From the NCBI GenBank assembly GCA_009692705.1, contig SHYR01000001.1, positions 33,948 to 97,947 on the forward strand: a stretch of 64,000 bases of DNA. The letters run 5' to 3'. The notes under the pieces were generated by a model. That model did not search any database. It saw only the letters and a program-made list of their open reading frames with translations, and had not been told where the DNA came from. The DNA is from Dehalococcoidia bacterium. Lineage in GTDB: Bacteria > Chloroflexota > Dehalococcoidia > UBA2979. A program made the position numbers and the translations under genes. Below, one piece after another: positions 2,747 to 41,838 of the stretch; the first letter of the stretch is position 1; each line of letters starts with the position of its first letter.

Positions 2747-2776
2747 GGCTTAGCACCGGTTCGCTCGCACCGCGGC

Positions 2777-6819: not shown

Positions 6820-7057
6820 CCCCGCTCCGAGCGCCCCTGTGCGGATTAACCCCGAGCGGGGGATCCCTGCAGGGTGCGCGCCAGCGCTGCCGCAGGTGTT
6901 CCCCGATCAGCCGCCCGCCGGATCGCCGCGATGATCCCCGCAGATTGAGTTGCGGCGGGGACCGACCGCAACCGCTGGCCGGCACGGATGCAGGCCGGTC
7001 CGCAGGCAGGGAAGGCAAGGGAGACCGCTGGCATGGGCATGACCATCCACCAACGTC

Positions 7058-7923
7058 ATGGCGATCAATGCGCAGCGCAACTTGAACGTCACGAGCTTCA
7101 AGCTCGGGCGTGCGCTGGAGCAGCTGTCCAGCGGCATGCGCATCAACCGCGCCGCCGACGACGCAGCCGGGCTGGCGATCAGCGAGAAGATGCGCACCCT
7201 GATCCGCGGCATGCAGCAGGGATCGCGCAACGGCCAGGACGGCATCTCGATGGTGCAGATCGCCGAGGGCGCGCTGAACGAGGTCACCGGGATTCTCCAG
7301 CGCATGCGCGAACTGACGGTGCAGGCCGGCAACGACACGCTCTCGCTCAACGACCGCCGGGCGATCGGTGAGGAGCTGCTGACGCTCAAATCCGAGGTGG
7401 ACAATATCTCGGCGCGCACGACGTTCAACGGCCTCAGCCTGCTGACCGGCTCGCTCTCGACCTTGCAGGACCTGCGACGGCGCTCACGCAGAGCAGCGGC
7501 ATGGTCACGATCAACGGCGTCGCGATCAGCTGGGACGCGACCGTGGATTCCCTGAACAATGTGATCTCGCGCATCAACCAGTCCGCTACCGGCGTGACCG
7601 CGACCTACGACGAGCAGAACGACAAGTTCGTGATCACGTCGAACAAGACCGGGTCGGTGGCGGTGGGGCTGGCGGACACGGCTGGCAACCTGCTCACCTC
7701 GCTCGGTGTGCTCGCCGCGACGCAGGGCATCGGTACCGGCGCGTCGTACAAGATCAACGGCGGACCGCTGCAGTACGCGGCGACGAACGAGGTCACGAAC
7801 GCCGTGACCGGGGTGACGCTCTCGCTGAAGGAGGTTACGGCTGCCGCGATCAAGGTCACGATCAACGCCGATACCAGCACGCTGAAGGCTCGGCTGGTCG
7901 ACTTCGTGGAGGAACCAAGGTAG
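7058..7923 (+). pseudogene. flagellin-family gene remnant, frameshifted near 7465 and lacking the conserved C-terminal domain
   Basis: 7058..7555 encodes a textbook flagellin N-domain (MAINAQRNLNVTSFKLGRALEQLSSGMRINRAADDAAGLAISEKMRTLIRGMQQGSRNGQDGISMVQIAEGALNEVTGILQRMRELTVQAGNDTL). After a +1 frame switch, 7501..7923 encodes a variable-domain-like segment ending in KARLVDFVEEPR then a stop. No flagellin C-terminal helix follows, and the start lacks the usual N-terminal NTN(V)AAL residues. Confidence 0.6.
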
Positions 7924-7942
7924 ACGAACATCCCCGTGCCGA

Positions 7943-8107
7943 TCACAACAGCAGCGCAACACACCATGTGAGCACGCCCACCAGCGATACCGTCGTAAAG
8001 AAACCAGCGGTGGTCGAACCCACCATGGAGCCGATGAGAACGTCCCCGGCAACCAAAGCTCGGATCACTTCCTGCGCGGTGAACGCGAGCGCCAGGGCTG
8101 CACCCAT
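7943..8107 (-). CDS. possible small hydrophobic protein (54 aa) in a low-GC patch
   Basis: Minus-strand ORF MGAALALAFTAQEVIRALVAGDVLIGSMVGSTTAGFFTTVSLVGVLTWCVALLL* with two predicted TM helices, below the track's length cutoff. The local GC is lower than flanking DNA. No convincing RBS. Confidence 0.2.
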   Translation of the reverse strand: MGAALALAFTAQEVIRALVAGDVLIGSMVGSTTAGFFTTVSLVGVLTWCVALLL

Positions 8108-8274
8108 GGCTCACCCGACCCAAGCTGAAGCGTCGACCACCGTGCACCACGCGGCGGCTCCAACGCCCCAGAGCATCGTGTACCCCACGACCTGGGTTAT
8201 GCGGAGAATCAAGCTCCTGCGGCGGTCGTTCACTAGCGACACTCCTAGTCTCCCGCACTCTACATCGCGGCTCA

Positions 8275-8529
8275 GTGGGCACCCCTCCATTACCGTTAGT
8301 ACGGGCGCTCGAGTGGCGGCGGCGTTCCGCGCCGGCGAACAGCGCCTCGCTTTGCGCCATCGACGAGTGTGGCGAGCGCATGCGGCACCAGTGCTCGCGC
8401 TGCCGGCTGATGTTCTGCGACCAGCACCTGAGCGAGGTCAGTGTGATCGAGGGGCGCGGCGCCAGCCGGCGGCGCGTGCACGTGCTGGTGTGCGCGTACT
8501 GCCGCGCTCGCGCGCGGTACTGGAACTGA
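8275..8529 (+). CDS. hypothetical Cys-rich small protein (possible zinc-binding)
   Basis: 84-aa ORF with 7 Cys arranged as CAIDEC...CSRC...FCDQH...CAYC. The N-terminal part lies in the low-GC patch. There is no RBS, and the start (GTG at 8275 or internal ATG) is uncertain. Confidence 0.3.
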   Translation: MGTPPLPLVRALEWRRRSAPANSASLCAIDECGERMRHQCSRCRLMFCDQHLSEVSVIEGRGASRRRVHVLVCAYCRARARYWN

Positions 8530-17983: not shown

Positions 17984-18751
17984 TTAGAGGAAGAGATCCA
18001 GCTCGCGGGCGCGCACCAGCTCCGCGCTCGACCCCTCGCCGCGCTCGAAGCGGTAGCCGCGCACGATCGCGGCGGGCACGGCGTCGACCTTGCCCATCAC
18101 CAGCTCGGCGGCGGCGGCGAGCTCGTCGGCGACGCAGATCGTGGTCACGCGCAGCTCGCGGCCGTCCATGTCGGGCATGCCGATGTATGAGCGCAGCGGG
18201 CGCAGCCCGGCGACGCCGATCGCGACATTGGTGTGGCCCTCGCGCCAGGGGCGGCCGAAGGTATCGGTCATCACCACCCCCAGATCGACGCCCAGCCGCG
18301 CGCGGGCGGCGTCACGGATGCGGCGGCAGGAGGCGTCGGGGTTCAGCGGCAGCAGCGAGACGAGGTCCTGTCCGCCGACGTTCGAGGCGTCGACGCCGGC
18401 GTTGGCGCAGATGTAGCCATGGCGCGTCTGCGTGATCAGCACGCCGCCGACCTGCCGCACCACGCGCGTCGACTCGCGCAGCACCGCCTCCACCAGCCGC
18501 GGGTCCTTCTCCATGCGCTGCGCGAAGTCGCGCGCGAACGGGGAGGGCTCGAAGTTGTCGAGCGGCACCACGCGCCCTTCGGCCTTCGACACCACGCGCT
18601 GCGTCACCACCAGCGCGTCGCCGTCGGCGAGCGGAGTGGCCTGCGCGGCAGCGGCTTCGAGGATCAGCGCGGCGAGGTCGTCGCCGGCCCGCACGAGTGG
18701 GATGCCGGTGATGCCGATCACGCGCAGCTCGGGGTGCGCGGGGTGGGTCAC
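17984..18751 (-). CDS. cofE: coenzyme F420-0:L-glutamate ligase
   Basis: Start set at GTG 18751 (VTHPAHPELRVIGITGIPLVRAGDDLAALI). It closely matches the CofE/FbiB N-domain (VVTQRVVSKAEGR...ANAGVDASNVGG...VVMTDTFGRPWREGHTNVAIGVAGL). The GTG overlaps the npdG stop (GTGA). Confidence 0.85.
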   Translation of the reverse strand: MTHPAHPELRVIGITGIPLVRAGDDLAALILEAAAAQATPLADGDALVVTQRVVSKAEGRVVPLDNFEPSPFARDFAQRMEKDPRLVEAVLRESTRVVRQVGGVLITQTRHGYICANAGVDASNVGGQDLVSLLPLNPDASCRRIRDAARARLGVDLGVVMTDTFGRPWREGHTNVAIGVAGLRPLRSYIGMPDMDGRELRVTTICVADELAAAAELVMGKVDAVPAAIVRGYRFERGEGSSAELVRARELDLFL

Positions 18752-19421
18752 GGCGCGCGCGGCGGCAGGCCCTGGATGCGCACGCCGCTGTGTGCCTGGT
18801 AGCGAGCGTTGATGCCGATCAGCAGCACGGTGATCCCTTCCACGAAGCGCGAGAAGCGCAGCGGGCCGGCGTCCACTGCGCGCACGCCGGCGATCTGCTC
18901 CGCGAGCTCGCAGACCACGCGCTTCGCCTCGGCGTCGGCGCCGGTCACTAGCACGTCGGCGTCGAGGGGAAGCGTGGGGTCGAGCAGTACCTCCGCCGGG
19001 AGGTTGTGGAAGGCGCCGACGACGCGCGAGGTGGGCAGTAGCGCCGCCGCTTGCTCGGTGGCGGAGCCTTCGGCCACTTCGACCGGGCGCGGGCCGCGGT
19101 CGAAGCGTACCGGCACCACGGTGTCGACTACCAGCTTGCCGGCGAGCGCCTCGCGCAGCGCCTCGAGGGTGTCGCGGTGCCCCTCGTAGGGGACGGTGAT
19201 GACGACGAGGTCGGCGGCCGCGACCGCGTCCGCATTCGTCGCGCCGCTGAGCGTCCCGTGGGTGCGCGCGCCGAGGCCGGCCGTGAGCGCCGCCGCCACG
19301 GCGACGCCGCGGCCGGCCTCGCGGCTGCCGATGACCACGCCGTGCCCGGCGAGCGCGAACCGGGTCGCGAGCCCCCGGCCCTCCGGCCCCGTGCCGCCAA
19401 TGAGCGCGATGGTGTGGGTCA
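18748..19421 (-). CDS. npdG: NADPH-dependent F420 reductase
   Basis: Start set at TTG 19421 (MTHTIALIGGTGPEGRGLATRFALAGHGVVIGSREAG) with a GAGGAG RBS 11 nt upstream. It has a Rossmann fold of the F420_oxidored family. The remaining 430 codons of the track ORF are artefact. Confidence 0.7.
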
Positions 19422-19569
19422 ACGCGGGTGAGGCTCCTCGGTCCGTCGCAGGCGGTGGGCCTGCGCCGTGCGGTACGCTGCACGATGGCTCGCGTACTGC
19501 TGCGGGCCGTGAGAGCGTACGCGCGCGCCACGAGGCGTGACAACTCGACGGTGGGAGGGAGCGCGGCGC

Positions 19570-20337
19570 ATGACCACCGTCATCGGCGTGCCCGCCGTGC
19601 GCGTGCGCGGCCTCTCGCACCGCTACCGCGGCGATGGCGGGCCGCTGCTCGCGCTCGCCGGTGTGGAGCTCGAGGTGGGCGCGGGCGAATTCGTGGCACT
19701 GGTCGGCCCGAGCGGCTGCGGGAAGTCGACGCTGCTGCGCGTGGTGGCTGGTTTGCTGGAGGTGTCGGGCGGGGCGGTCGACGTGCTGGCGGGGAGTGCG
19801 ACCGCGGCGCGGGCGGGCCACCGCGTGGGGCTGGTGACCCAGGAGCCGGGACTGCTCCCGTGGCGCACGGTGGCGGGAAACATCGCGCTGCCGCTGGAGG
19901 TGACGGGCGCGCGCGCCGACGTCGATGCGCTGCTGGCGCGCGTGGGGATCGCGGCCTTCGCGCGCTACCACCCGCACGAGCTCTCGGGCGGCATGCGGCA
20001 GCGCGTGGCGCTGGCGCGCGCGCTCGCGCACGGGCCGCGGCTGCTGCTGATGGACGAGCCCTTCGGGTCGCTCGACGAGTTCGCGCGTGAGGCGATGGGG
20101 CGGGAGCTGCTGCGCATCTGGGAGCGCGACCGCGTCTCGGTGCTGTTCGTCACGCACTCGATCCGCGAGGCGGTGCTGCTCGCCGACCGCGTGCTGGTGA
20201 TGAGCGCCGCGCCTGGGCGCATCGTCGCGGAGCTGCCGGTGCACCTGCCGCGGCCGCGTCCGCGCGCGCTGGACGAGACGCCGGAGTTCGCGGCGCTGCT
20301 GCACCGCGTGCGCGAGGCGCTGGGCGGCGCACCGTGA
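19570..20337 (+). CDS. ABC transporter ATP-binding protein (nitrate/sulfonate/taurine NitT-TauT family)
   Basis: Start at ATG 19570 with a GGGAGGGAG RBS. It has Walker A (GPSGCGKST), the ABC signature (LSGGMRQRVALARAL) and Walker B (LLLMDEPFGSLD). Confidence 0.85.
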   Translation: MTTVIGVPAVRVRGLSHRYRGDGGPLLALAGVELEVGAGEFVALVGPSGCGKSTLLRVVAGLLEVSGGAVDVLAGSATAARAGHRVGLVTQEPGLLPWRTVAGNIALPLEVTGARADVDALLARVGIAAFARYHPHELSGGMRQRVALARALAHGPRLLLMDEPFGSLDEFAREAMGRELLRIWERDRVSVLFVTHSIREAVLLADRVLVMSAAPGRIVAELPVHLPRPRPRALDETPEFAALLHRVREALGGAP

Positions 20338-21215
20338 GCGTGCTGGCGGGACGCGAGGCGGCGGGCGGCGCTCCGGAGCCCGGCGACCTGCTGGAGGGCA
20401 CGGAGTGGGTGGCCGCTCCGCCATCCGCGCGCTCGCGGGCGCGGCCGGCGTTCGGCGCGGCGCTGCGGATTGCTGCGCCGCCGCTGCTGGCGGCGGCGCT
20501 GGCGCTGACGCTGTGGGAGGCGTGGGTGCGCGCCTTCGAGGTGCGCGAGTACCTGGTGCCCGCACCGAGCGCCGTGCTGCGCGCGCTCGCGGCGGACCCC
20601 GCCCGCTACCTTGGTGCGGCGCGAGTGACGCTGGCCCACGCGCTCGGTGGACTCGCGGTCGGCGCCGGGTCGGCGTTCCTGCTGGCGGTGGTGATGGCGC
20701 ACTCGCGGCCACTGGAGCGTGCGCTGTACCCGCTGGCGATCCTGGTGAAGGTGACGCCGGTGGTGGCGGTGGCGCCGCTGTTCCTGATCTGGTTCGGCTT
20801 CAACGCCTGGCCGAAGGTGCTGGTGGCGGCGCTGATCACCTTCTTCCCGATGCTGGTGAACGCCGTGACCGGGCTGCGCAGCGTGGAGCCGGCGGCGTTC
20901 GACTTCCTGCGCGCGCTCGACGCGTCGCGCTGGCAGCTGTTCTGGAAGCTGCGCTTGCCGTCCTCGTTGCCGTATGTGCTGGCGGCGCTGCGCATCTCCG
21001 TGCCGCTGGCCGTGATCGGTGCGGTGGTGGCGGAGTGGTTCGCCGCCGACACCGGGGTCGGGCAGATCATCGTGATCGCGAACGGGGAACTGGACACGCC
21101 GACGCTCTTTGCCGCCGTGCTCGTGCTGGCGCTGATCGGCGTGACGCTTACGCTTGCGATTGCCTATATTGAGCACCGCGTGCTGTTCTGGCACGAATCC
21201 TCGACGGGCGTGTAG
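20334..21215 (+). CDS. ABC transporter permease (SsuC/TauC-type)
   Basis: 6 TM segments and an EAA-like loop. GTG start overlaps the ATPase stop (GTGA). Confidence 0.85.
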   Translation: MSVLAGREAAGGAPEPGDLLEGTEWVAAPPSARSRARPAFGAALRIAAPPLLAAALALTLWEAWVRAFEVREYLVPAPSAVLRALAADPARYLGAARVTLAHALGGLAVGAGSAFLLAVVMAHSRPLERALYPLAILVKVTPVVAVAPLFLIWFGFNAWPKVLVAALITFFPMLVNAVTGLRSVEPAAFDFLRALDASRWQLFWKLRLPSSLPYVLAALRISVPLAVIGAVVAEWFAADTGVGQIIVIANGELDTPTLFAAVLVLALIGVTLTLAIAYIEHRVLFWHESSTGV

Positions 21216-21297
21216 CGCCCGCGACTGCGTCGCGGATGCACGCCCGAGCCACCCCGACCGGCGTGCAGCGCCCGCGTGCGTCGCGGATGCACGCCCC
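21207..21297. repeat. two ~40-bp direct repeats separated by 12 bp, each containing a short palindrome (CGCGAC-TGC-GTCGCG)
   Basis: ggcgtgtagcgcccgcgactgcgtcgcggatgcacgcccg at 21207 and ggcgtgcagcgcccgcgtgcgtcgcggatgcacgcccc at 21259. The first copy begins at the permease stop codon. Both lie just upstream of the SBP gene. Confidence 0.55.
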
Positions 21298-21317
21298 GGA
21301 CCCGACGGAGCCGCCCC

Positions 21318-22364
21318 ATGTCTCGTCTGCGTGCCCTCGCGCCCCTCGGCGCGCTTCTGCTTGCGCTGCTGCTCGCCGCCTGCGGCGGTGACGGTGCTCC
21401 CGCCGCCGCGCCCGCCTCGCTGGCCGCGTCGACCGCGTCGCGTGCCCCGGAGCGCGTCACGTTCATGGCGGGGTTTACGCCGCAGGCGAACCTGCCGTTC
21501 GTCGGGGTCTACGTCGCCGTCGCGAAGGGCTACTTCGCCGAGCAGGGCCTCGAGGTGGAGGTGCGGCATTCGAGCGGGCAGGACGAGCACCTCAAGCTGC
21601 TGCTCGCGCAGGGGATTGACTTCACCACCGGCACCGCGGCCCAGGTGCTGCGCCGGCGCGCGGATGTGGTGCCGGTGGTGGCGGTGGCGCTGTTCGGACA
21701 GCGCGGCGACCAGGGCTACGTCGCGCGCGCGGACTCCGGCATCAAGGGGCCCGCCGATTTCCGCGGGCGCAGCGTGGGCTTCAAGGCCGGGGTCGTTCCC
21801 GCCGAGCTGAAAGCGATGCTCGCGAGCGCAGGCCTCGCGGAGAGCGACGTGAAGTTGCAGGCGGTGGGCTTCGACCCGCGGGTCTTTATCGAGAAGCAAG
21901 TGGATGTCTACCCGGTGTTCCTGAACAACGAGCCCGACACGATCCGGCGCGTCGGCGTGCCGATCACGGTGATCGATCCGGCCGACTTCGGCGTGCTCAC
22001 GCTCGGCCTGACGTTCCTCGCGCACGAGGACACCGTGAAGCAGCGGCCGCAGACGGTGGAGCGCTTCCTGCGCGCCTCGCTGCGCGGCGTGCAGTATGCC
22101 TCAGAGCACGTCGACGAGGCGGTGCAGATCACGCTGCAGTACGCGAAGGGCGCTGACGCCGAGCACCAGAAGTTCCTGCTCGAGACCGAGATCGCGGGCG
22201 CGAAGCGCGCGGGCGGGGTGGGGCGCTCGGACGCGGCGCAGTGGCAGTCGCTGGAGCAGCTGCTGCGGAAGTTCGGCGTGCTGGAGGCCGGCAAGAGCGT
22301 GGCCGGGGCCTACGACGGGTCCTTCGTCGACCGACTGTACGACGCGCAGGGGAAGCTGAAGTGA
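21318..22364 (+). CDS. ABC transporter substrate-binding lipoprotein (NMT1/SsuA/TauA-like)
   Basis: Start at ATG 21318 (MSRLRALAPLGALLLALLLAACGG lipobox). It has a periplasmic-binding fold of the NMT1/THI5 type. Confidence 0.8.
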   Translation: MSRLRALAPLGALLLALLLAACGGDGAPAAAPASLAASTASRAPERVTFMAGFTPQANLPFVGVYVAVAKGYFAEQGLEVEVRHSSGQDEHLKLLLAQGIDFTTGTAAQVLRRRADVVPVVAVALFGQRGDQGYVARADSGIKGPADFRGRSVGFKAGVVPAELKAMLASAGLAESDVKLQAVGFDPRVFIEKQVDVYPVFLNNEPDTIRRVGVPITVIDPADFGVLTLGLTFLAHEDTVKQRPQTVERFLRASLRGVQYASEHVDEAVQITLQYAKGADAEHQKFLLETEIAGAKRAGGVGRSDAAQWQSLEQLLRKFGVLEAGKSVAGAYDGSFVDRLYDAQGKLK

Positions 22365-22380
22365 GCGCAGGCGGCGGCCG

Positions 22381-24048
22381 CTAGAAGAGCTGGACGCCGT
22401 TCGCGCCGCGGCTCACCGGCTTGGGCTGGCCCGGGCTGTCGAAGTAGATCTCGAACTCCCAGAAGCCGGCCCCGACCGGGTCGTCGGGGGAGTAGCCAAC
22501 CCACCAGCGGCCGCTGTCGCCGCCGCTCCACGGCACCACCGGCGACTGGTATTCGACGCGGCCGTTGCGGAACACGATCCAGCGCATCTGCGAGGTGCCC
22601 CCGGCGTCGCGGTAGTCGAAGAACGCCAGCAGTTGCCGCGCGGAGCCGCTGGCCGGGACCGGTTGGCCGCCCGCCGGCGCGGCGGCGGAGGCGAAGCTGA
22701 AGCCGCTCATGCGCGGCTCCGTCGATGGCGGCGCGCCCACGATCGCGGCGGCGCCGGCGCGCACCGCGCCGCCGATACGGACCTCGAGGCGCCAGACGCC
22801 CAGTGGCATGCCGCGCGGGTTCGGCGCGGTCAGGTGATCCGCCACGAGGCCGAACGATCCGCCGTTCCAGTTGTAGGAGGACGAGAAGCCGTCCTGCAGC
22901 ACATCCTGCAGGTACCAGCGCTCCTCCACCAGCGTGCCGTTCGGCACCGCCTGGAGCGCGTACTCGTAGTAGATCGCCGGTGGCGGCTGCGAGAACAGGC
23001 GCGTGTAGTCGAAGAGGCCGAGCTGGCCCTCGTCCACGACGGCGTTCTGAGCGAACGCCGGCTGGCCGATCACGATCCCGTCGGTCGGCGTGCCGCCGGC
23101 GGTGCCGGGCAGCAGCGGCGAGTGCTGGAGCGGCGCCACGTAGCGCGCCTCCGCTCCCGCCCGGCGCGCGCGCTCGATCAGGTCGCTCGCGAGCGTGAGC
23201 GGCCGCAGCTCGCCCACCACGGCGCGGGCGTCGTAGCGCAGCTGCGTGACGATGCCGATCAGCGCGCCGGTGACGTCGAACGCCGGCCCGCCGCCGATCG
23301 CGGCCGGCAGGCGCGCGTCCGTCTTGATCCACGCGCGGCCGCTGACACGGGCGTTGCCGCGGAACCCGGTGACGACGGCGGTCGTGGAGCTGACCGCGGA
23401 CGGGCGCGCCGGGTCCGGGACGGAGTAGCCGAGCAGCCGGATCGCGTCGCCGCGCTTGATCGCGTCGGCGTTGCCGAGCGTGGCGGCGCTGATCGTGAAC
23501 GCGCCGGGATCGAGCGCACCGCCGCGGTAGGTGCGCACGGCGCGCAGCACGGCGAGGTCGAGCGTGGGGTCGGCGCTCACGATCTCGGCCTCGAAGCGCG
23601 GCTCGGGCGCTGCACCGGCGGTCGCCGCCACCGCCACCGCGATCGTGGCGTACGCGCGCGTGCCGTCTGCCCGGTACGGATCGACGAGCGCGTAGCTCGT
23701 GAGCAGCAGCCGCTGCGCGCGGTCCACGACGACCGCGGATCCGACGCGCACCGGCGCGGGCTGCCCCGCGGCGGTTTCGAGCAACTGGAGCTGCACCACG
23801 GGAGCGGAGAGCTGCGCCAGCGGGAGCGCGTCGGCGCGCGCGCGTTGGTCGGCGCCGGGGACGCCGACGCCGCTGGGGGGGAGGATCGGCGGCGCGACAA
23901 TCGGGGTCGGGGTGGCGGAGGCGTCGAGCGGGGTGGGGGTGACCTGGTCGCGGCGGATGAACGTGCTCGCGCGGTCGCAGGCGGTGAAGAGCACCGCCAG
24001 CAGCAGCAGGGTCGCCAGGGCCGCCGGGGCCGTGCGGGTTGCGCGCAT
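22381..24048 (-). CDS. lipoprotein with catalytically dead trypsin-like (S1) domain plus C-terminal domain of unknown function
   Basis: Lipobox LLLAVLFTACD. The trypsin-like core aligns to the neighbouring HtrA but with catalytic His replaced by Ala (LLLTSYALVD vs ILTNYHVVEG) and Ser replaced by Gly (AAIGGGPAFD vs NPGNSGGPLF). Asp is retained (DLAVL). Confidence 0.7.
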   Translation of the reverse strand: MRATRTAPAALATLLLLAVLFTACDRASTFIRRDQVTPTPLDASATPTPIVAPPILPPSGVGVPGADQRARADALPLAQLSAPVVQLQLLETAAGQPAPVRVGSAVVVDRAQRLLLTSYALVDPYRADGTRAYATIAVAVAATAGAAPEPRFEAEIVSADPTLDLAVLRAVRTYRGGALDPGAFTISAATLGNADAIKRGDAIRLLGYSVPDPARPSAVSSTTAVVTGFRGNARVSGRAWIKTDARLPAAIGGGPAFDVTGALIGIVTQLRYDARAVVGELRPLTLASDLIERARRAGAEARYVAPLQHSPLLPGTAGGTPTDGIVIGQPAFAQNAVVDEGQLGLFDYTRLFSQPPPAIYYEYALQAVPNGTLVEERWYLQDVLQDGFSSSYNWNGGSFGLVADHLTAPNPRGMPLGVWRLEVRIGGAVRAGAAAIVGAPPSTEPRMSGFSFASAAAPAGGQPVPASGSARQLLAFFDYRDAGGTSQMRWIVFRNGRVEYQSPVVPWSGGDSGRWWVGYSPDDPVGAGFWEFEIYFDSPGQPKPVSRGANGVQLF

Positions 24049-24215
24049 GGGGCGTCACGGTAGCGCGCCGCCCACGTCCGGGCCAGCGCGGGCCAGCGTA
24101 CACTTCGTGGTGAGGGGTCTCAGGGGACCGCGTTAGCACCCGTTTCACACTCACCACACGTTGCGATCACGCGCGTCTGCCACGATCGGGGTGCGCAGGC
24201 GTGGGAGGTGCTCGA

Positions 24216-25400
24216 ATGTCGCGAAACGCGTGGGTCCGGCTGCTGGCTCAGGCAGTGCTGCTGGTCGCGGCGGCGGCGCTCGGCGGCGTGCTGGCGGTGA
24301 GTCTCGGCGGCGGTGGTGGCGGCGGCGGCGGTGGCGCGGTGCCAACGGCGACGCTCGGCGAGCGGGCGCCGCAGACGCAGGCCGTGAGCGGAACGCTCCC
24401 CCAGCCGGCGGAAGCGGGGGCCGCCGCCGCCACGTCGCCGTCGCTCGCGGACGTGGTCGCCGACGTGCGCCGCTCGGTGGTGGTGATCACGGCGGTCAGC
24501 TCCGCCTCCCACGGCCGGGGCGGCGAGGGCACCGGCCTGGTCGTGGACCAGCATGGACACATCCTCACGAACTACCACGTCGTGGAGGGCGCAGATGACC
24601 TGATGGTGCGCTTCTACGACGGCACCACGGCGGTCGCGCGCCTGCTCGGCGCGGATCAGGACAACGACCTCGCGGTCCTACAGGTCTTGCTGCAGCCGCA
24701 GCAGCTGGTGCCGGTGCGCTTCGCGGACTCGAGCGCCGTGCGCGAGGGCGACAGTGTGTTCGCGATCGGTAACCCGTTCTCGTTCGGCTTCACGGTCACC
24801 CGGGGGATCGTCAGCGGGCTGGGGCGCGAGTCCAGCTCGAACTCGTCTGGGCGCGCGATCCGGGGCGTGATCCAGACGGACGCGGCGGTGAACCCCGGCA
24901 ACTCCGGCGGGCCGCTGTTCAACCTGCGGGGCGAGGTGGTGGGCGTCAACAACGCGATCCACAACCCGACCGGGCAGCGTGTCTGGGTGGGCGTGGGCTT
25001 CGCGATCCCCTCGAACACGGCGCAGCGCTACCTGCCGGACATGATCGCCGGGCGCGAGATCCGGCACCCGCAGCTCGGCCTGTCCGGGCTCACGCTGGAC
25101 GATGTGAACGCGCCGAAGGCGGGCTTGAGCGTGACCCGCGGCGCCTACGTGACGGCCGTGGTCGCTGGCAGCGCGGCCGAGCGTGCGGGCCTGCGTGCGG
25201 CCGCCGGCACGGCCGCGGCCGGCTCGCTGCCGCCGAGTGGGGACGTGGTGGTGAGCGTGAACGGTACGGCGGTGACGAGCATGCAGCAGCTTGCGCGGCT
25301 GATCGACGAGCACAACATCGGCGACCAGGTGACGTTGGCCGTGGTGCGTGGCGGCCAGCGGCTGTCACTGACCGCCACGCTGCTGGAGTGGCGCCGCTAG
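24216..25400 (+). CDS. htrA: HtrA/DegP-family serine protease (trypsin domain + PDZ), membrane-anchored
   Basis: ATG at 24216 has a GGGAGGTG RBS 5 nt upstream. It has an N-terminal TM segment, an intact catalytic triad (HILTNYHVV, DLAVL, GNSGGPL) and a C-terminal PDZ. Confidence 0.9.
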   Translation: MSRNAWVRLLAQAVLLVAAAALGGVLAVSLGGGGGGGGGGAVPTATLGERAPQTQAVSGTLPQPAEAGAAAATSPSLADVVADVRRSVVVITAVSSASHGRGGEGTGLVVDQHGHILTNYHVVEGADDLMVRFYDGTTAVARLLGADQDNDLAVLQVLLQPQQLVPVRFADSSAVREGDSVFAIGNPFSFGFTVTRGIVSGLGRESSSNSSGRAIRGVIQTDAAVNPGNSGGPLFNLRGEVVGVNNAIHNPTGQRVWVGVGFAIPSNTAQRYLPDMIAGREIRHPQLGLSGLTLDDVNAPKAGLSVTRGAYVTAVVAGSAAERAGLRAAAGTAAAGSLPPSGDVVVSVNGTAVTSMQQLARLIDEHNIGDQVTLAVVRGGQRLSLTATLLEWRR

Positions 25401-25422
25401 TCGCGCGGCGCGGGGGCGGCGA

Positions 25423-26010
25423 CTAACCGCCTGGTAGCCCGCCGGTGCCCTCGCCAGCTTCGCCGGGCGGCAGTTCGAGCGCGCGCCCGGCGACCAGCAG
25501 CCACGCCTGCGCCGCGCGCGCAGCGGCGCGCTGGTTCGCGCGCCCGAGCAGGTCGCGGTACGCGCGGCCGAGCGGCGCCGGCGGCACCACGCCCGCGCCG
25601 ACCTCGTTGGTGACGATGATCGTGGGCGCGTCGCGCCCCGCGGCGGCGTCTAGCAGCGCGTCGAGCTCGCGCTCGAGCTCGCCCTCGAGCGCGGCGAGCG
25701 CGGCGGCCGCGGGCGTCTCGCCCAGCGCGAGCAGGCGGTTGGAGACCCACAGCGAGAGACAGTCCAGCAGCACGCAGTCGCCGGCCTCCGCTTGCGCGAG
25801 CGCGCGTGCCGGCTGCAGCGGCGCCTCGACGGTGCGCCACGCCCGCGGCCGCTGTGCGCGGTGGCGCGAGATGCGCTCGCGCATCTCGTCGTCGAGCCCC
25901 TCCAGTGTCGCGACGTAGAGTACGGGGCGGCCGGTGCGCTCCGCGAGGCGCTCCGCGAAGCGGCTCTTGCCGCTGCGCGCGCCGCCGGTGACGAACCACA
26001 GCTCGCCCAC
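25423..26010 (-). CDS. cobU: adenosylcobinamide kinase / adenosylcobinamide-phosphate guanylyltransferase
   Basis: P-loop FVTGGARSGKS and CobU/CobP family. Start set at the GTG 8 nt after the cobQ stop. The upstream part of the track ORF is antisense to cobQ. Confidence 0.8.
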   Translation of the reverse strand: MGELWFVTGGARSGKSRFAERLAERTGRPVLYVATLEGLDDEMRERISRHRAQRPRAWRTVEAPLQPARALAQAEAGDCVLLDCLSLWVSNRLLALGETPAAAALAALEGELERELDALLDAAAGRDAPTIIVTNEVGAGVVPPAPLGRAYRDLLGRANQRAAARAAQAWLLVAGRALELPPGEAGEGTGGLPGG

Positions 26011-26018
26011 CGTGTCGC

Positions 26019-27572
26019 CTAGCGCGCCGCGTGGCCGGAGGGCCACAGCAGCGCGCGCACGCGCTCTAGGTCGACGTGGGAGCGCACGTGCTGGGCGAGG
26101 CGGTCGAACTCCCGCTCGCGGTCGAAGGGCCGCCCCCCCGCGCCGCGCCGGCCGAGGGCGGCGAGCAGCGCGCCGCGCAGGGCGTCGTTGTGGAACAGCC
26201 CGTGCAGGTATGTGCCCGCCGCGCGCCCGTCCGCCGTGACCGCGCCGTCGGGGCGGCCGTCGAGCTCGAGCAGCGGCGCCACGACCGCGCCGCCGGTGCC
26301 CTCGCTGTGGCCCATGTGGATCTCGTAGCCGTCGACCGCGCAGCCGGCCGCCTGCTCCCACGGGCCGCATGCCGCCTGCACGCGGCCGTGCGCGCGGCGC
26401 GTCGCTTTCTCGGCGGCGAAGGTGGTGGTGATCGGAAGCAGCCCGAGCCCCGGCACCGCGGTGCCGGGCGGGGCCTCGACGCCGTCGGGGTCGAGCAGGC
26501 GCTCGCCCAGCATCTGGAAGCCGCCGCAGATGCCCAGCACCGGCGTGCCGCCACGGTGCAGCGCCACCACTGCGGCGGCGAGGCCGGCGCGGCGCAGCGC
26601 CTCGAGGTCGGCGATCGTTGCCTTCGTGCCGGGGAGGATCACGAGCGAGGGTGTGCCGAGGTCCTCCACGCGCGAGACGTAGCGCAGGCGCACCCCCGGC
26701 TCGTCGATGAACGGATCGAAGTCGTCGAAGTTCGCGATTCGCGCCAGCCGCAGCACCGCGATGTTCACCTCGACCGCGCGCGCCGGGTCGCGCGCCGCGC
26801 CGCGCTCCCCGGGGCCTTCCCCCGCGCGTTCGAGCGCGACGGCGTCTTCCTGCGCGATGCGCAGGTCGTCGAGCCACGGGATCACGCCGAGCACGGGCAC
26901 GCCGGTGCGCGCCTCGAGCTCCGCGATCGCCGGCGCGAGCAGCGAGGGATCGCCGCGGAAGCGGTTGATCAGGAAGCCGCGCACCAGCGCGCGCTCCTCC
27001 GCGGTCAGCAGCGCGAGCGTGCCGAGCAGGTGCGCGAATACCCCGCCGCGGTCGATGTCGCCGGCCAGCAGCACGACGGCGCCGGCGTGTCGCGCGACGC
27101 GCAGGTTCACGATGTCGCCCGCGCGCAGGTTCGGCTCCACCGCGGCACCGGCGCCCTCCGCCACCACCAGCTCGTACTGCGCGCGCAGACGGTCGAGCGC
27201 GCGCTCCACGGCGGGCCAGAGGTCGCGCTTGCGCTCGACGAACTCGCGCGAGCCGATCACGCCCGCCGGGCGGCCCTCCAGCACGACCTGGGAGGTACGG
27301 TCGCCCTGCGGCTTGAGCAGCACGGGGTTCATCAGCACGCTCGGGGCAAGCCCGGCCGCGGCCGCCTGTTCGGACTGCGCGCGCCCGATCTCGAGCCCGT
27401 CGGGGGTGACGTCGGCGTTGTTCGACATGTTCTGCGCTTTGAACGGCGCCACGCGCACGCCGTCCTGCCGGAAGATGCGGCAGAGCGCGGTCACCAGCAC
27501 CGACTTGCCCACGGAGGAGGCGGTGCCGAGCACCATCAGCACCGGTGTGGGAGTGGCGGGGCGGGCGGTCAC
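26019..27572 (-). CDS. cobQ: cobyric acid synthase
   Basis: 517 aa with the CobQ/CbiP N-terminal dethiobiotin-synthetase-like domain (MVLGTASSVGKSVLVTALCR) and C-terminal GATase1 (ICGGFQMLG...YEIHMGHS). Confidence 0.9.
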   Translation of the reverse strand: MTARPATPTPVLMVLGTASSVGKSVLVTALCRIFRQDGVRVAPFKAQNMSNNADVTPDGLEIGRAQSEQAAAAGLAPSVLMNPVLLKPQGDRTSQVVLEGRPAGVIGSREFVERKRDLWPAVERALDRLRAQYELVVAEGAGAAVEPNLRAGDIVNLRVARHAGAVVLLAGDIDRGGVFAHLLGTLALLTAEERALVRGFLINRFRGDPSLLAPAIAELEARTGVPVLGVIPWLDDLRIAQEDAVALERAGEGPGERGAARDPARAVEVNIAVLRLARIANFDDFDPFIDEPGVRLRYVSRVEDLGTPSLVILPGTKATIADLEALRRAGLAAAVVALHRGGTPVLGICGGFQMLGERLLDPDGVEAPPGTAVPGLGLLPITTTFAAEKATRRAHGRVQAACGPWEQAAGCAVDGYEIHMGHSEGTGGAVVAPLLELDGRPDGAVTADGRAAGTYLHGLFHNDALRGALLAALGRRGAGGRPFDREREFDRLAQHVRSHVDLERVRALLWPSGHAAR

Positions 27573-27582
27573 GTGCGAGCCC

Positions 27583-28389
27583 TCACGTGAGAAAGGTGGC
27601 GTCGAGCCAGCCGCGCGCGCCGGCGGCGACGATCGCGAGCCAGAGCGCCGCCTGCGCGATCTCGATCGCCGCGCCGTAGGTGTCGCCCGTCACGCCGTCT
27701 AGCATGCGCGCGCTGGCGTAGGCGATCGCGACCGCGGCGCCGGCGGCGACCGCCAGCAGCGCCAGCCCCTGCGGTCCGAACAGTGCGAGCGCGGCCGCGG
27801 CCGCGAGCACCGTCGCGAGCGGGACGGCGAGCGGCCACGCGGCGGCGTGCAGCGCGTGCCCGAGCCCGCGCGGGCGCGCGGGGTGGAATAGCACCACCAC
27901 CGGGACCACCGCCCAGCGCGCCAGCGCCGGCGCTAGCACGATGCCCGCGGAGCGTACCGGCGCGGCCAGCGAGGCGAGCGCGGTCCACGTCACCAGCAGC
28001 ACGAGCACCAGCGCCATCACGCCGGCGGGGCCGGTGTTGCCCTCGCTCATGATGCCGAGGCGCTCGGCGCGGTCGCCCTGTAGCGCGAGGCCGTCGGCGG
28101 TGTCGGCGATGCCGTCGAGGTGCAGCCCGCCGCTGAGCAGCACTAGCGCGGCGACGAGCAGCGCCGACGCGGGCCCGCTCGGCAGTAGCCGCTCGAGGCC
28201 GCGGTCGAGCAGCAGTAGCACGATGCCGATCGCGAGGCCGACGAGCGGGTACCACGCCAGCGCCGCGCCGAAGCTGCGGTCGTCCCACTGCCGGACGCGG
28301 CGCAGGCGCAGCGGGGTGAGGAACTCCAGCGCGATCAGCGGGGAGGGCCACACGTGGGCGCGCGCGCTGCGGGCGAGGGCGGAGCGCAT
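27583..28389 (-). CDS. cobS: adenosylcobinamide-GDP ribazoletransferase (cobalamin synthase)
   Basis: Polytopic membrane protein with the CobS motif (GGLHLDGIADTADGL). Confidence 0.85.
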   Translation of the reverse strand: MRSALARSARAHVWPSPLIALEFLTPLRLRRVRQWDDRSFGAALAWYPLVGLAIGIVLLLLDRGLERLLPSGPASALLVAALVLLSGGLHLDGIADTADGLALQGDRAERLGIMSEGNTGPAGVMALVLVLLVTWTALASLAAPVRSAGIVLAPALARWAVVPVVVLFHPARPRGLGHALHAAAWPLAVPLATVLAAAAALALFGPQGLALLAVAAGAAVAIAYASARMLDGVTGDTYGAAIEIAQAALWLAIVAAGARGWLDATFLT

Positions 28390-28398
28390 CGGCGACCG

Positions 28399-29496
28399 CT
28401 ACGACTCTGGCGGCACGACGTCGTCGGAGTCGTCGACGCCGGCCTCCTCGAAGGTCGCCATCTCGTCGAGCAGGCGGCAGGCGGCGACGCAGAGCGTGAT
28501 GCCGAGCGCCGCGCCGGTGCCCTCGCCGAGCCGCATGCCGAGGTCGATCAGCGGTTCGAGGCGCAGCCACTCGAGCATCGCCGCGTGCCCCGGCTCCACC
28601 GAGCGGTGCGAGGCGATCAGGCAGGCGCGCGCCGCCGACGCGACCGCGTCCGCCACCAGCGCGGCGGCGCCCGAGATCATGCCGTCCATCACCGCGGGCA
28701 CGCGCGCGGCGGCGGCGGCGAGGTAGACGCCGGCCAGCACGCCGATCTCGAAGCCGCCGAGGGCCGCCAGCAGCCCGACGCCGTCGGCCGGGTCGGGGGC
28801 ATTCACGGCCAGCGCGCGCTCGATCGCCACGACCTTGGCCTCGAAGCGCGCGTCGTCGATGCCGGTGCCGCGGCCGGTGACGGCGCGCGGCGGGCGACGC
28901 GTGACCGCCGCGACGATCGCCGCGGCAGCGGTGGAGTTGCCGATGCCCATGTCGCCGAGGCCCACGATGTCGACGCCAGCCCCGGCGCGCTCCGCCTCGA
29001 ACAGCGCGATGCCCTCTGCGAGCGCGCGCTCGGCGAGCGCGCGCGGCATCGCCGGGCCGCGAGTGAAATCCGCGGTGCCGGGGCCGAGGCGCAGGCGCAG
29101 CAGTTGCGGCGAGTGCGGCGTTTCGGCGGCGACCCCGGCGTCGACGACGCGCACGCGGGCGCCGGCGTGGCGGGCGAGCACGTTGATCGCGGCGCCGCCG
29201 GCGAGGAAGTTCGCCACCATCTGCGCGGTCACGGACTGCGGGTAGGCGGAGACGCCCTGCGCGGTCACGCCGTGATCGCCGGCGGCCACCACCACCAGGC
29301 GGCGGTCCAGTCGCGGGCGCTGCTGGCCGGTGATGCCGGCGATGCGCGTCGCCAGCGCCTCGAGGCGGCCGAGCGAGCCGGGCGGCTTGGTGAGGCGGTC
29401 CTGCCGCGCCGCGGCGTGCGTCGCCGCGTCCGCATCGGGCGGAGCGATCGCGCGCACGGTGCGCTCGAGCAGGGCGGCGGGATCGGTCACGGGCAT
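28399..29496 (-). CDS. cobT: nicotinate-nucleotide--dimethylbenzimidazole phosphoribosyltransferase
   Basis: CobT family (KPPGSLGRLE...VVVAAGDHGV...GLGDMGIGNSTAAAA...GEGTGAAL). Confidence 0.9.
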   Translation of the reverse strand: MPVTDPAALLERTVRAIAPPDADAATHAAARQDRLTKPPGSLGRLEALATRIAGITGQQRPRLDRRLVVVAAGDHGVTAQGVSAYPQSVTAQMVANFLAGGAAINVLARHAGARVRVVDAGVAAETPHSPQLLRLRLGPGTADFTRGPAMPRALAERALAEGIALFEAERAGAGVDIVGLGDMGIGNSTAAAAIVAAVTRRPPRAVTGRGTGIDDARFEAKVVAIERALAVNAPDPADGVGLLAALGGFEIGVLAGVYLAAAAARVPAVMDGMISGAAALVADAVASAARACLIASHRSVEPGHAAMLEWLRLEPLIDLGMRLGEGTGAALGITLCVAACRLLDEMATFEEAGVDDSDDVVPPES

Positions 29497-34525: not shown

Positions 34526-35284
34526 ATGGAACCGTTCAGACGCAACGTGCTGCCGGTGGTGGTGGGGATCGCGGCGCTGCTGGTCGCGGTCGCCTCGGTG
34601 GTCTACCTGGTGGACTGCGTCCGCGGACGCGACGACGGGGACGGCGAGCGCGATCGGCGGGAGTCGTTGCGCCTCGACCCGCAGCTGCTGCAGCTGCTGC
34701 AGCTGTTCGCGCGCGCCCGCGCCGACGCCGCCGCAGGCGCGGCGGCCCCCGCTCCCGGCCCAGACGCGGCGCCCGCACGCGCTCCCGGCCTGTTGCTGGG
34801 CGTGAGCGTGGCCGAGCAGGACGGGAAGCTGGTGGTGCAGCGCGTGCTGCCGAACACGCCGGCGGTGAAGGCCGGGGTGAAGGAGGGCGACCAGATCGCC
34901 GCGGTCGCCGATCAGGCCGTGACCAGCTTCGATGCGCTGCGGCAGGCCGTCCAGCAGCAGCCGCCCGGCAAGCAGTACGACCTCGCGGTGGTGCGCGGCA
35001 GCAAGCGCCTGACGCTCAAGGTCGACCGGCCGCAGGCGGTGCGTGCGGTCCCCGGCGCGGGGCCGCTGCGGCGGGGACCCGGAGCCGGCGCGCAGCCTGG
35101 TCAGCAGCCTGGTCAGCAGCCTGGTCAGCAGCCTGGTCAGCAGCCGGACCAGCAACGGCCGCGCTTCATGCCGGGCGCGCCGAACGCCCCGCGCGGCGGC
35201 GTGATGCCTGCGCCCTCGCCCTCGGGCGGCAGCAGCGGCCAGACGCTGGCGCTGCTTGTGCAGCCGCTGGCGGCGGGCGCCTGA
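34526..35284 (+). CDS. membrane-anchored PDZ-domain protein with C-terminal (QPGQ)n repeat
   Basis: N-terminal TM (VLPVVVGIAALLVAVASVVYLV) and a PDZ domain (GLLLGVSVAEQDGKLVVQRVLPNTPAVKAGVKEGDQIAAVADQAV...YDLAVVRGSKRLTLKV), followed by QPGQQPGQQPGQQPGQQPDQQ. Confidence 0.7.
   Translation: MEPFRRNVLPVVVGIAALLVAVASVVYLVDCVRGRDDGDGERDRRESLRLDPQLLQLLQLFARARADAAAGAAAPAPGPDAAPARAPGLLLGVSVAEQDGKLVVQRVLPNTPAVKAGVKEGDQIAAVADQAVTSFDALRQAVQQQPPGKQYDLAVVRGSKRLTLKVDRPQAVRAVPGAGPLRRGPGAGAQPGQQPGQQPGQQPGQQPDQQRPRFMPGAPNAPRGGVMPAPSPSGGSSGQTLALLVQPLAAGA
35093..35152 (+). repeat. 12-bp tandem repeat (cagcctggtcag) x4-5, coding for QPGQ repeats
   Basis: cagcctggtcagcagcctggtcagcagcctggtcagcagcctggtcagcagccggaccag, read directly from the sequence. 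Confidence 0.8.
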
Positions 35285-39158: not shown

Positions 39159-40928
39159 ATGCACGAGTCGAACTACTGGACGAAGAAGAGCGTGGGGCGG
39201 CGCGCGGTGCTGCGCGGTTCCGGGCTCGGGATCGCCGGCCTCGCCGGCGCGGCGCTGATCGGCTGCGGCAGCGGGGAGGAGGCAGCCCCTGCGACCGCGG
39301 CGACCGCGGCGACTGCGGCGACCGGGGCGACCCCAGCACCAGCGGCGACGGTGACTGAGGCGCAGAAGAGGGGCGGCTACTTCAAGGGCATTGTTGCCCA
39401 GGGCTACAATCCGACGAACATCGACCCGTACACCACACCAGCTGGCAGCGTGTATAACGTCCAGGGGAACTCGTGGTACGAGTCGCTGATCGATCCTGAC
39501 CTTACGAACGTGGATTGGGTGAGGAACTACAAGCTGACGCCGAAGCTCGCCGAAAAATGGGAGCAGCCGGATCCAGCGACTTATCTCTTCACCGTCCGGC
39601 CCGGTGTGAAGTTCCACAACGGCTCGACGTTGACGGCCGAGGACGTCGCGTACAGCTATGGGAGATGGAACGAGCTGGGGGCTAACCCGAACACGGCGGC
39701 GCTGAGTCGAGACGTCAAGTCAATAGACGCGATTGATGCAAAGACGTTTCGCGCGGTTGCGAAAAAGCCCGACGTGGATTTCATCGAGAATTTCAACGGG
39801 AATGTCAGGTTGGGCACCGGTATCATGCCGAGGAGCGCCGCTACCGCCGGCGTCGACTTCAAGAAGACGGTGGTCGGGACTGGGCCTTTCAGGCTCCAGC
39901 GCTACCAGGCGGACGGCACCGCACTCGCTGTTCGCTTCGACGAGTACTGGCAGGCGGGCAGACCGTATCTCGACGGTATCCACCTCGTGATGGGCGCGGA
40001 CGACGCGACGATCTCGGCCGCCTTCATCGCGCGCGAGGTCGATGCCGTGACCCGGCCGGATCGCCTGCAGGCGGATCCGATCCGCAAGGCGGTGCCCGAT
40101 GCCGAGGTGGTGACGTGGGCTGGCGACAACGTTTACGGGCTGAGCCTGAATGTGGGCCGGGCGCCCTACAGTGATGTCCGGGTCCGGCGCGCGCTTCACC
40201 TCGCGCTCGATCGCCCGGGCATCGAGGCCCTGGTGTCCTTCGGCGATGGCCTGATCAGCGGCCCGCTGATCATCGAGCGAGCGGGCTACACCATGACGCA
40301 TGCTGAGCTGCTCGCGCAGCCCGGTTATCGCACGCCGAAGGATGCGGACATCGCGGAGGCGCTGAAGCTGCTCGACGCCGCCGGCTACAAGGGAGGGTTC
40401 AAGGCGGAGTTCATGTCCAACCCCGCCACGGCTGCCGCGACCGGGGCATTTGCTGAGGCGATACAGGCGCAACTGAAGAAGACACTGTCGATAGACACTA
40501 GGCTGGTGCCCGTGGAAGGTGCGGCGTTCACCGCGCGGCGCAACACCAGCGGCGACTTCGATCTGGTGATCGAACTGCCCGCCGGTGTCGCCCGGCCTGG
40601 CGTCAGGGTGCAGAGCATATATTCCACCAACGCGGCTCCGAAAGCCGCCGGCTGGAAGGACACCGAACTCGACTCGCTGATCGACGCGCAACGGCTGGAG
40701 TTCGACGACAAGGCACGCGGCGCGATCTTCCAGAAGATCGAGCGCAAGCTGCTTGACCTGGCATGGTTCCTGGGCATTTCGGCGGGTCCGTATTTCGGCC
40801 TGCGGCAGCCATGGGTCCGCGACTACCGGGACAACCGCGCCCGAATAACGGCACTCACGAATCCGAGCTGGGTCTGGCTGGACTTGAACAAGGCGCCCGC
40901 CAATCGTAAGTCGCAGCCTGCATCGTAG
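39159..40928 (+). CDS. ABC substrate-binding protein family 5 (peptide/nickel/opine type), Tat-signal lipoprotein, orphan (no cognate permease or ATPase nearby)
   Basis: Twin-arginine motif and lipobox (GRRAVLRGSGLGIAGLAGAALIGC). The SBP_bac_5 fold is present throughout (KFHNGSTLTAEDVAYSY...). GC is lower than in neighbouring genes. Confidence 0.85.
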   Translation: MHESNYWTKKSVGRRAVLRGSGLGIAGLAGAALIGCGSGEEAAPATAATAATAATGATPAPAATVTEAQKRGGYFKGIVAQGYNPTNIDPYTTPAGSVYNVQGNSWYESLIDPDLTNVDWVRNYKLTPKLAEKWEQPDPATYLFTVRPGVKFHNGSTLTAEDVAYSYGRWNELGANPNTAALSRDVKSIDAIDAKTFRAVAKKPDVDFIENFNGNVRLGTGIMPRSAATAGVDFKKTVVGTGPFRLQRYQADGTALAVRFDEYWQAGRPYLDGIHLVMGADDATISAAFIAREVDAVTRPDRLQADPIRKAVPDAEVVTWAGDNVYGLSLNVGRAPYSDVRVRRALHLALDRPGIEALVSFGDGLISGPLIIERAGYTMTHAELLAQPGYRTPKDADIAEALKLLDAAGYKGGFKAEFMSNPATAAATGAFAEAIQAQLKKTLSIDTRLVPVEGAAFTARRNTSGDFDLVIELPAGVARPGVRVQSIYSTNAAPKAAGWKDTELDSLIDAQRLEFDDKARGAIFQKIERKLLDLAWFLGISAGPYFGLRQPWVRDYRDNRARITALTNPSWVWLDLNKAPANRKSQPAS

Positions 40929-41023
40929 GGCGGGCGAGCTCATCACTGACGCCGCCAGTACGAGCTGGACGGCGATCTGAAGCGGCCGTAACTGCCGCGC
41001 CACTGTCCGAGAGGAGCCGCAAG

Positions 41024-41824: not shown

Positions 41825-41838
41825 TGTTGGCGACGACG

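Follow-up and report, generated by a model that had tools for sequence, protein, structure and literature searches.

A protease-like lipoprotein head-to-head with htrA

The stretch analysed here (hereafter the window) comprises 64,000 nucleotides of contig SHYR01000001.1 from a Dehalococcoidia bacterium (Chloroflexota; assembly GCA_009692705.1, positions 33,948 to 97,947 of the forward strand). In it, a gene for a predicted lipoprotein with a protease-like domain stands head-to-head with an intact htrA gene (Table 1). The protease-like domain appears to have lost its active site, and we refer to this protein as the pseudoprotease. A public entry on a 135-kb contig has the identical sequence and bears the name 'MAG: serine protease [Dehalococcoidia bacterium]' (MAG, metagenome-assembled genome).

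Table 1 Features of the pseudoprotease-htrA locus in window coordinates (aa, amino acids; AF2, AlphaFold2; Ig, immunoglobulin; pLDDT, predicted local distance difference test)
Feature	Coordinates	Strand	Basis or remark
Pseudoprotease lipoprotein gene	22381..24048	(-)	open reading frame, 555 aa plus stop; Trypsin_2, 54 bits
Predicted signal peptide with the lipobox LFTAC (Cys24), residues 1-24	23977..24048	(-)	modelled helix at residues 7-30
Pro/Thr-rich disordered stalk, residues 25-71	23836..23976	(-)	pLDDT <50 at residues 28-71; composition
Catalytically dead HtrA-like (S1C/Trypsin_2) domain, residues 72-300	23149..23835	(-)	Pfam; AF2, pLDDT 82; Foldseek
Predicted Ig-like beta-sandwich domain 1, residues 325-440	22729..23076	(-)	AF2 models; Foldseek; no Pfam match
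Predicted Ig-like beta-sandwich domain 2, residues 445-555	22384..22716	(-)	AF2 models; Foldseek
Ala120 codon, catalytic His column	23689..23691	(-)	LTSYALVD vs LTNYHVVE (HtrA) and VTNNHVVD (DegP)
Asp164 codon, catalytic Asp column (retained)	23557..23559	(-)	LDLAV vs NDLAV (HtrA) and SDIAL (DegP)
Gly252 codon, catalytic Ser column	23293..23295	(-)	AAIGGGP vs PGNSGGP (HtrA) and RGNSGGA (DegP)
Divergent intergenic region	24049..24215	(.)	167 bp; 152 bp if htrA starts at GTG 24201
htrA-associated motif GTTAGCA-N3-GTTTCAC	24132..24148	(+)	68 nt before the htrA ATG
Intact membrane-anchored HtrA	24216..25400	(+)	394 aa plus stop; N-terminal transmembrane helix, Gly10 linker, protease domain, one PDZ

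The catalytic residues of the pseudoprotease are replaced

The catalytic columns were read from an alignment of the pseudoprotease with the neighbouring HtrA and with E. coli DegP, the DegP sequence serving as an alignment guide only. Independent pairwise alignments, by BLASTP to the neighbouring HtrA and by phmmer to DegQ structures, return the same columns. The TD(A) and GG(P) loop scaffolds of HtrA are kept around them, and G253, which follows the Ser column, is conserved together with its loop in the family alignment (A1).

The Pfam profile Trypsin_2 matches residues 103-266 over all of its 144 positions (54.1 bits against a gathering cutoff of 27.6, E 3.7e-14), and neither His nor Ser is recovered at the triad columns. 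The first-pass annotation had described an S1 fold with His changed to Ala, Ser to Gly and the Asp kept, and residues A120, G252 and D164 bear this out. Alignment and profile evidence thus strongly supports a true pseudoprotease. The Do-family model TIGR02037 reaches 23.5 bits, far under its cutoff of 416.2, and no PDZ domain was found at E<=1 in the whole protein or at E<=10 in its C-terminal half.

Predicted architecture

The signal peptide and the lipobox identify the protein as a bacterial lipoprotein, with lipidation predicted at a cysteine that is invariant in A1; 69 of the 75 family sequences have a Cys of the lipobox type. Directly after it, the family carries a near-invariant C-x-R-x-A-E-L-I-P-G, which might be a sorting or interaction signal. 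The window copy is an outlier at this site, reading CDRASTFIRRD (residues 24-33, ~23950-23979 on the minus strand).

Modelled in full length with A1, the protein (pLDDT 82; predicted template modelling score, pTM, 0.78) consists of a signal helix, a disordered stalk at residues 28-71, a protease fold at residues ~72-300 and two all-beta regions at residues ~325-440 and 445-555. A Foldseek search of the Protein Data Bank (PDB) with this model retrieves DegP, Deg1, DegQ, HTRA1 and DegS at E values of about 1e-12 to 1e-9, with template modelling (TM) scores on the target of up to 0.76 for isolated protease domains. The pseudoprotease domain is accordingly modelled with the double beta-barrel of the chymotrypsin fold. 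With HtrA, DegP, DegQ and DegS (S1C) it shares this protease fold and the Trypsin_2 match; unlike them, it lacks the His, the Ser and the PDZ domain, and is lipid-anchored by prediction where they are soluble or held by a transmembrane helix.

The extra C-terminal part, put at ~250 aa in the first reading of the locus, is indeed present as a region of ~235 aa (about residues 320-555) with the two Ig-like domains. Modelled alone, the C-terminal half reaches a pLDDT of 86. A Pfam search of this half gave no match, and none to a carbohydrate-binding module (CBM) or lectin profile either; in the PDB its model matches only generic tandem Ig/FN3-like pairs (TM 0.25-0.37), among them the biofilm matrix scaffold RbmA, the colonisation factor GbpA, the C-terminus of Vpr and transglutaminase barrels. 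Seven tryptophans of the C-terminal half are invariant in A1, three in the first Ig-like domain (W378, W394 and W419) and four in the second (W490, W507, W516 and W530), alongside many invariant acidic residues.

The full model also matches the S1C-NTF2 bi-domain of RsgI9 (PDB 7sjy). The S1C peptidase-like sensor domain of RsgI9 is not known to keep catalytic residues, and like the pseudoprotease domain it sits in an extracytoplasmic, membrane-tethered protein, one that is reported to bind a ligand. Only structural similarity was seen: the RsgI9 domain is part of an anti-sigma factor, comes with an NTF2 domain and has cellulose as its ligand, and the protein possesses neither an Ig-like pair nor a lipid anchor. 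By analogy, the pseudoprotease could be a structural lipoprotein or one that binds surface glycans or other envelope polymers through its dead S1C domain and Trp-rich Ig-like domains. Besides the structural match, the reported binding of cellulose by the S1C protease-like domain of RsgI9 in Clostridium thermocellum (PMC12203970), the invariant Trp and acidic residues and the proximity of RbmA and GbpA among the fold neighbours speak for such a role. However, the beta-sandwich matches are generic, glycan-binding profiles find nothing, the invariant Trp may simply be core residues and no glycan-related genes are conserved nearby, and we hold glycan or polymer binding to be distinctly unlikely.

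A conserved family devoid of the catalytic triad

A word-indexed search yielded 23 full-length homologues with 39-58% identity, and a scan of one genome per GTDB species yielded 55 loci with full-length open reading frames, almost all of them in Dehalococcoidia or Chloroflexota MAGs. The complete H-D-S triad is found in 0 of 74 Dehalococcoidia/Chloroflexota homologues. Residues were counted column by column in 75 unique family sequences. Thirteen different residues occupy the His column (24 P, 11 A, 10 H, 7 S, 7 Q and others) and ten the Ser column (30 A, 10 G, 9 S, 9 V, 6 D and others), and the Asp column holds 48 D, 17 G, 7 E, 2 Q and 1 R.

A single relative has the complete triad (ILTNCHVAD / DLAV / GNSGGTAV). 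It is encoded at positions 7001-8431 of locus L062, in the Anaerolineae MAG DAOTXL010000137, measures 749 aa, shares 26% identity and has none of the conserved neighbour genes. To judge by its sequence, it probably represents the ancestral type in an active form.

Hydrolysis by a non-canonical set of residues would reconcile these losses with an enzymatic function. It could draw on the Ser that 9 of the 75 sequences have at the nucleophile column, on the His that 10 have at the base column, and on the conservation of G253 with its surrounding loop. However, no Dehalococcoidia member has His and Ser together, both columns are hypervariable, 27 of the 75 sequences have Gly, Glu, Gln or Arg in place of the Asp, and A1 contains no alternative invariant Ser, Cys, Lys or His near the site. 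A surviving enzyme is thus very improbable.

One sub-clade (L044, L045, L046, L049, L050, L053, L056 and L063) keeps the His (LTSAHVVD), with Glu for Asp and Ala or Gly for Ser. Several of its members carry an Ala/Pro-rich extension at the N-terminus and are longer, at about 590-615 aa. The sub-clade seems to represent another route to inactivation, or another stage of it.

Alignment A1 has 40 invariant columns. Across 12 non-overlapping independent pairs, the ratio of non-synonymous to synonymous substitution rates (dN/dS, Nei-Gojobori method) was 0.09-0.37 in the protease-like half and 0.07-0.29 in the C-terminal half. Both halves of the pseudoprotease are under purifying selection; the gene is maintained and is not a pseudogene. 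A functionless, decaying relic in a meaningless neighbourhood would agree with the loss of the catalytic residues, but not with dN/dS well below 1 in both halves, with the invariant columns, or with the intact full-length reading frames that 55 species and deep branches of marine Chloroflexota possess. Among the readings considered, we regard it as the least probable of all.

We conclude that this is a real, conserved and previously uncharacterised pseudoprotease family that extends across a large Dehalococcoidia clade, and that triad loss is family-wide. Several of its members (P0001, P0010, P0015, P0021 and P0023) are annotated as 'serine protease' or 'S1-C subfamily serine protease'. Since the whole family is without a catalytic triad, these public labels amount to systematic misannotation, and they are misleading for metabolic and proteolytic inventories.

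Probable descent from active lipoprotein proteases

An exhaustive profile search with the C-terminal alignment returned 270 cluster representatives at E<=1e-3. About 27 of them, at E<=1e-30, are the pseudoprotease family itself. The remoter matches are proteins of 525-1057 aa that combine Trypsin_2 with the same two beta-sandwiches; a lipobox-type Cys is found in most of them, and added PPC or CarboxypepD_reg domains in many. The motifs TNxH, DLAV and GNSGG are intact in P0050, P0053, P0061, P0062, P0065, P0071 and P0093. The active lipoprotein proteases, as yet unnamed (P0050, P0053, P0061 and P0065), share with the pseudoprotease the domain order and a homologous C-terminal module. They differ in keeping the triad, which the pseudoprotease family has lost throughout, and often in carrying extra C-terminal domains.

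By BLASTP, the pseudoprotease aligns with P0050 over 476 aa (30% identity, 150 bits, E 1e-43), and with the adjacent HtrA over 79 aa only (28.5 bits, E 4e-4). Because the match to P0050 is so much better, we take the pseudoprotease to be a dead descendant of its own lipoprotein-protease lineage and reject its origin as a degenerate duplicate of the adjacent HtrA. The idea that its active paralogue lies next door, held in the first-pass annotation, therefore has to be given up. No further paralogue of the pseudoprotease or of HtrA was found within the window.

The deeper dead branches P0052, P0055, P0059 and P0060, of which P0059 comes from marine Chloroflexota, have degenerate triad columns too. 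At the level of sequence, this suggests that the triad loss is old. The active relatives of the same architecture offer a natural active/dead comparison for the repurposing of a protease scaffold.

The neighbouring HtrA

The HtrA encoded across the intergenic region has an intact triad (H121, D151 and S230) and scores 121.9 bits with Trypsin_2, 47 bits with PDZ_2 and 289 bits with TIGR02037. With its start at ATG 24216, preceded 7 nt upstream by GGGAGG, the protein has 394 aa and the head-to-head spacing of 167 bp that was initially described is confirmed; the alternative GTG at 24201 gives 399 aa. Ten consecutive Gly codons right after the transmembrane helix (~24306-24335, plus strand) form an unusually pure flexible tether.

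The gene pair lies in a larger syntenic block

Synteny was assessed from the gene tables of seven homologue contigs and by tblastn of ten window proteins onto the 55 loci. The conserved order is cobS, cobU, htrA(-), a variable slot, pseudoprotease(+), sometimes PALP(-), NMT1(-), ABC permease(-), ABC ATPase(-), npdG(+) and F420 ligase(+), and the whole 15-kb block is syntenic across the clade. In the window, the pair is flanked by a cobalamin lower-ligand/salvage cluster (cobU, cobQ, cobS and cobT-like), an NMT1-type ABC transporter and F420 genes (npdG-like and F420 ligase-like); these flanking clusters, at 25423-29496 (-) and 17984-22364, keep their order across the clade.

The variable slot holds an enoyl-CoA hydratase (ECH) gene in 25 genomes, an S49 (SppA-like) peptidase gene, in some cases accompanied by one for a 181-aa hexapeptide-repeat-like protein, in 11, ECH with acyl-CoA dehydrogenase (ACAD) in 3, and four genes in 1. 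Altogether, 1-3 unrelated genes separate htrA from the pseudoprotease in 40 genomes, for example at 5079-5885 in L001, 4983-5813 in L003, 2409-4578 in L008 and 5046-5867 in L005. We considered a proteolysis cluster of S49 peptidase, HtrA and pseudoprotease, and rejected it: the commoner intervening gene is ECH, sometimes accompanied by acyl-CoA dehydrogenase.

The slot is empty, with the two genes directly adjacent, in 3 of the 55 genomes (L010, L015 and L041) and in the window. Because the intervening gene or genes are absent, the head-to-head arrangement is a derived state, implying a lineage-specific deletion of the S49, 181-aa or ECH genes in the window. At 8 of the 51 informative loci, those with enough upstream sequence, there is no HtrA within 7 kb. 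In L017, L026, L027 and L058 the htrA slot itself is empty, since cobU sits 225-377 bp from the pseudoprotease gene. The pseudoprotease is still under selection without a local htrA, with dN/dS of 0.28 and 0.20 for L026/L058. Examined across genomes, the pair is therefore not a conserved unit. Many loci have htrA nearby, but this is no more specific to the pair than the nearness of the ABC transporter or of the F420 genes, because the block is conserved throughout.

The conserved upstream element belongs to htrA

A consensus scan of positions 22200-25600 found no sigma-70-like promoter and no terminator match, and an Rfam scan of the spacer gave nothing at E<=1. The only repeats of the spacer are weak inverted ones and a tandem duplication of 10 nt, and none of these is conserved in other genomes. 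The duplication is a perfect tandem copy of the 10-mer CGGGCCAGCG at 24079-24098 and does not recur in the other spacers between directly adjacent genes.

Comparison of the four directly adjacent spacers revealed one motif, whose family form in the htrA orientation is GTTAGCA-N3/4-GTTTCAC. In a position weight matrix (PWM) scan it lies 23-97 nt upstream of htrA in 27 of 44 htrA-bearing loci (among them L010, L011, L015, L022, L025, L031, L032, L037, L042, L043, L048, L057 and L060), 9 of these 27 loci being outside the PWM training set. Elsewhere, the 1.5 Mb scanned contained 4 matches, and the chance expectation in the window is 0.03. A second near-match in the window, at 51073-51089, lies inside an acetolactate-synthase-like coding sequence and was taken as chance.

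Where ECH or S49 genes intervene, the motif remains next to htrA, and there is no locus in which it accompanies only the pseudoprotease. This upstream element belongs to htrA, and a regulator site shared by both genes in the 167-bp spacer is not supported. The half-sites, ~10-11 nt apart, presumably recall the direct repeats of the OmpR family, such as the CpxR box upstream of degP. The element could mark an envelope-stress regulon in Dehalococcoidia.

Proposed role and the case for an HtrA partnership

We now propose that the pseudoproteases form a lipid-anchored, extracytoplasmic family of dead HtrA-fold proteins which descends from active lipoprotein proteases, has a non-catalytic binding role and is encoded in its own transcription unit. 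We put the probability of this reading at roughly 0.55. The protein would be lipid-anchored outside the cytoplasm, its flexible Pro/Thr stalk carrying the HtrA-fold beta-barrel, bereft of the general-base His and the nucleophile Ser, followed by the two Ig-like beta-sandwiches. Most likely it would act by non-catalytic binding on the outer side of the cytoplasmic membrane: the Ig-like domains, together with a substrate cleft that is inert but has kept its structure, may hold a polypeptide or another envelope ligand. The gene would be transcribed on its own, and its head-to-head position in the window would have arisen within the order-conserved block by the absence of the ECH or S49 gene or genes.

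Several observations weigh against this proposal. The binding role, although the most likely one, is suggested by fold, conservation and analogy. The pseudoprotease and HtrA are both tethered to one and the same membrane face, and htrA lies within 0.15-4 kb of the pseudoprotease gene, on the opposite strand, at 43 of the 51 informative loci. The two proteins also co-vary. In a mirror-tree analysis of eight genes in 30 genomes, their distance correlation (r = 0.88) is the highest of the 28 gene pairs, and the partial correlation left after removal of the mean of the other genes is 0.64, with controls at <=0.37. When all genes are subsampled to 180 columns, the pair retains 0.85 [0.79-0.89] against 0.79 for the next pair, and in a taxon bootstrap its excess over the best control is 0.085 [0.019-0.148].

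These points favour the alternative, raised in the first-pass annotation and in analogy to MamO and MamE, that the pseudoprotease is a dedicated partner of HtrA, acting as an adaptor, as an allosteric activator or inhibitor, or in mixed oligomers. Its dead protease domain or its Ig-like domains would then bind the membrane-anchored HtrA or HtrA substrates. Precedents exist: MamO is a trypsin-fold pseudoprotease with a di-His metal site that promotes proteolysis by the HtrA protein MamE in magnetotactic bacteria, where active/inactive trypsin-fold pairs evolved several times (PMC4794232), and in mycobacteria the lipoprotein LppZ joins HtrA in an essential complex (PMC6538288). The earlier statement that no such HtrA partner is described was consequently too strong.

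Against a dedicated partnership, the proximity of the genes is unspecific, as the whole block is syntenic, and cytoplasmic metabolic genes (ECH, ACAD and that for a 181-aa protein) usually stand between them. The pseudoprotease persists under selection where the HtrA slot is empty, the two genes have no common regulatory motif, and the pseudoprotease is not derived from HtrA. The mirror-tree signal is itself confounded: with mean distances of 1.01 and 0.62, the pseudoprotease and HtrA evolve faster than all other proteins in the set, and the two have an extracytoplasmic location in common, so that shared effects of rate or composition can produce such a signal. We read the co-variation as a modest, confounded hint of a link, suggestive that the adjacency may not be purely coincidental. 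A functional link to HtrA is possible; a dedicated partnership is a tentative alternative that we consider doubtful.

As with MamO and MamE, a degenerate-triad Trypsin_2 protein is encoded in the window near an active HtrA-family protease. MamO, however, carries a C-terminal TauE-like membrane domain, whereas the pseudoprotease is a predicted lipoprotein with two Ig-like domains, and with the NCBIfam MamO model, whose cutoff is 800, it scores 11.1 bits. MamO has a surface di-histidine metal-binding motif; among the invariant residues listed for the family in A1 there is no His. Further differences are that the pairing in the present clade is not a conserved module and that the pseudoprotease does not stem from the HtrA lineage. 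LppZ provides the example of a lipoprotein partner for a membrane-anchored HtrA, the role in which the pseudoprotease would match it, but LppZ is not known to be protease-like.

The concept of a pseudoprotease paired with HtrA is thus already known; what is new is the architecture (a lipid anchor with two Ig-like domains), the lineage and the origin. The literature searched contained no paper linking pseudoproteases with Chloroflexota. To our knowledge, bacterial pseudoproteases are few and come mostly from special systems, namely magnetosomes, the Csp proteins of C. difficile and RsgI9. The family described here brings a widespread, selectively maintained and surface-anchored pseudoprotease to an abundant, poorly cultivated class.

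A stronger form of the partnership holds that the family is an obligate non-catalytic partner of HtrA (adaptor or allosteric regulator) across Dehalococcoidia, recruited from the lipoprotein subfamily with Trypsin_2 and twin Ig-like domains. We judge it unlikely, a shade more so than a dedicated partnership in general. If true, it would constitute a further independent origin of the MamE/MamO-type pairing of active and inactive trypsin folds, reached without duplication of HtrA, and the pair would serve the general envelope proteostasis of a monoderm lineage. Any true link to HtrA would carry the MamO/MamE principle over to the general quality control of the envelope.

Other observations in the window

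A tblastn search with the PDZ region of HtrA matched positions 34883-35020 (+) with 41% identity over 46 aa (E 4e-5), which points to another PDZ protein in the window. Finally, the G+C content of the window is ~74% and drops to 0.65 at 2001-4000 and at 40001-42000, where RNA genes or foreign DNA could be located.

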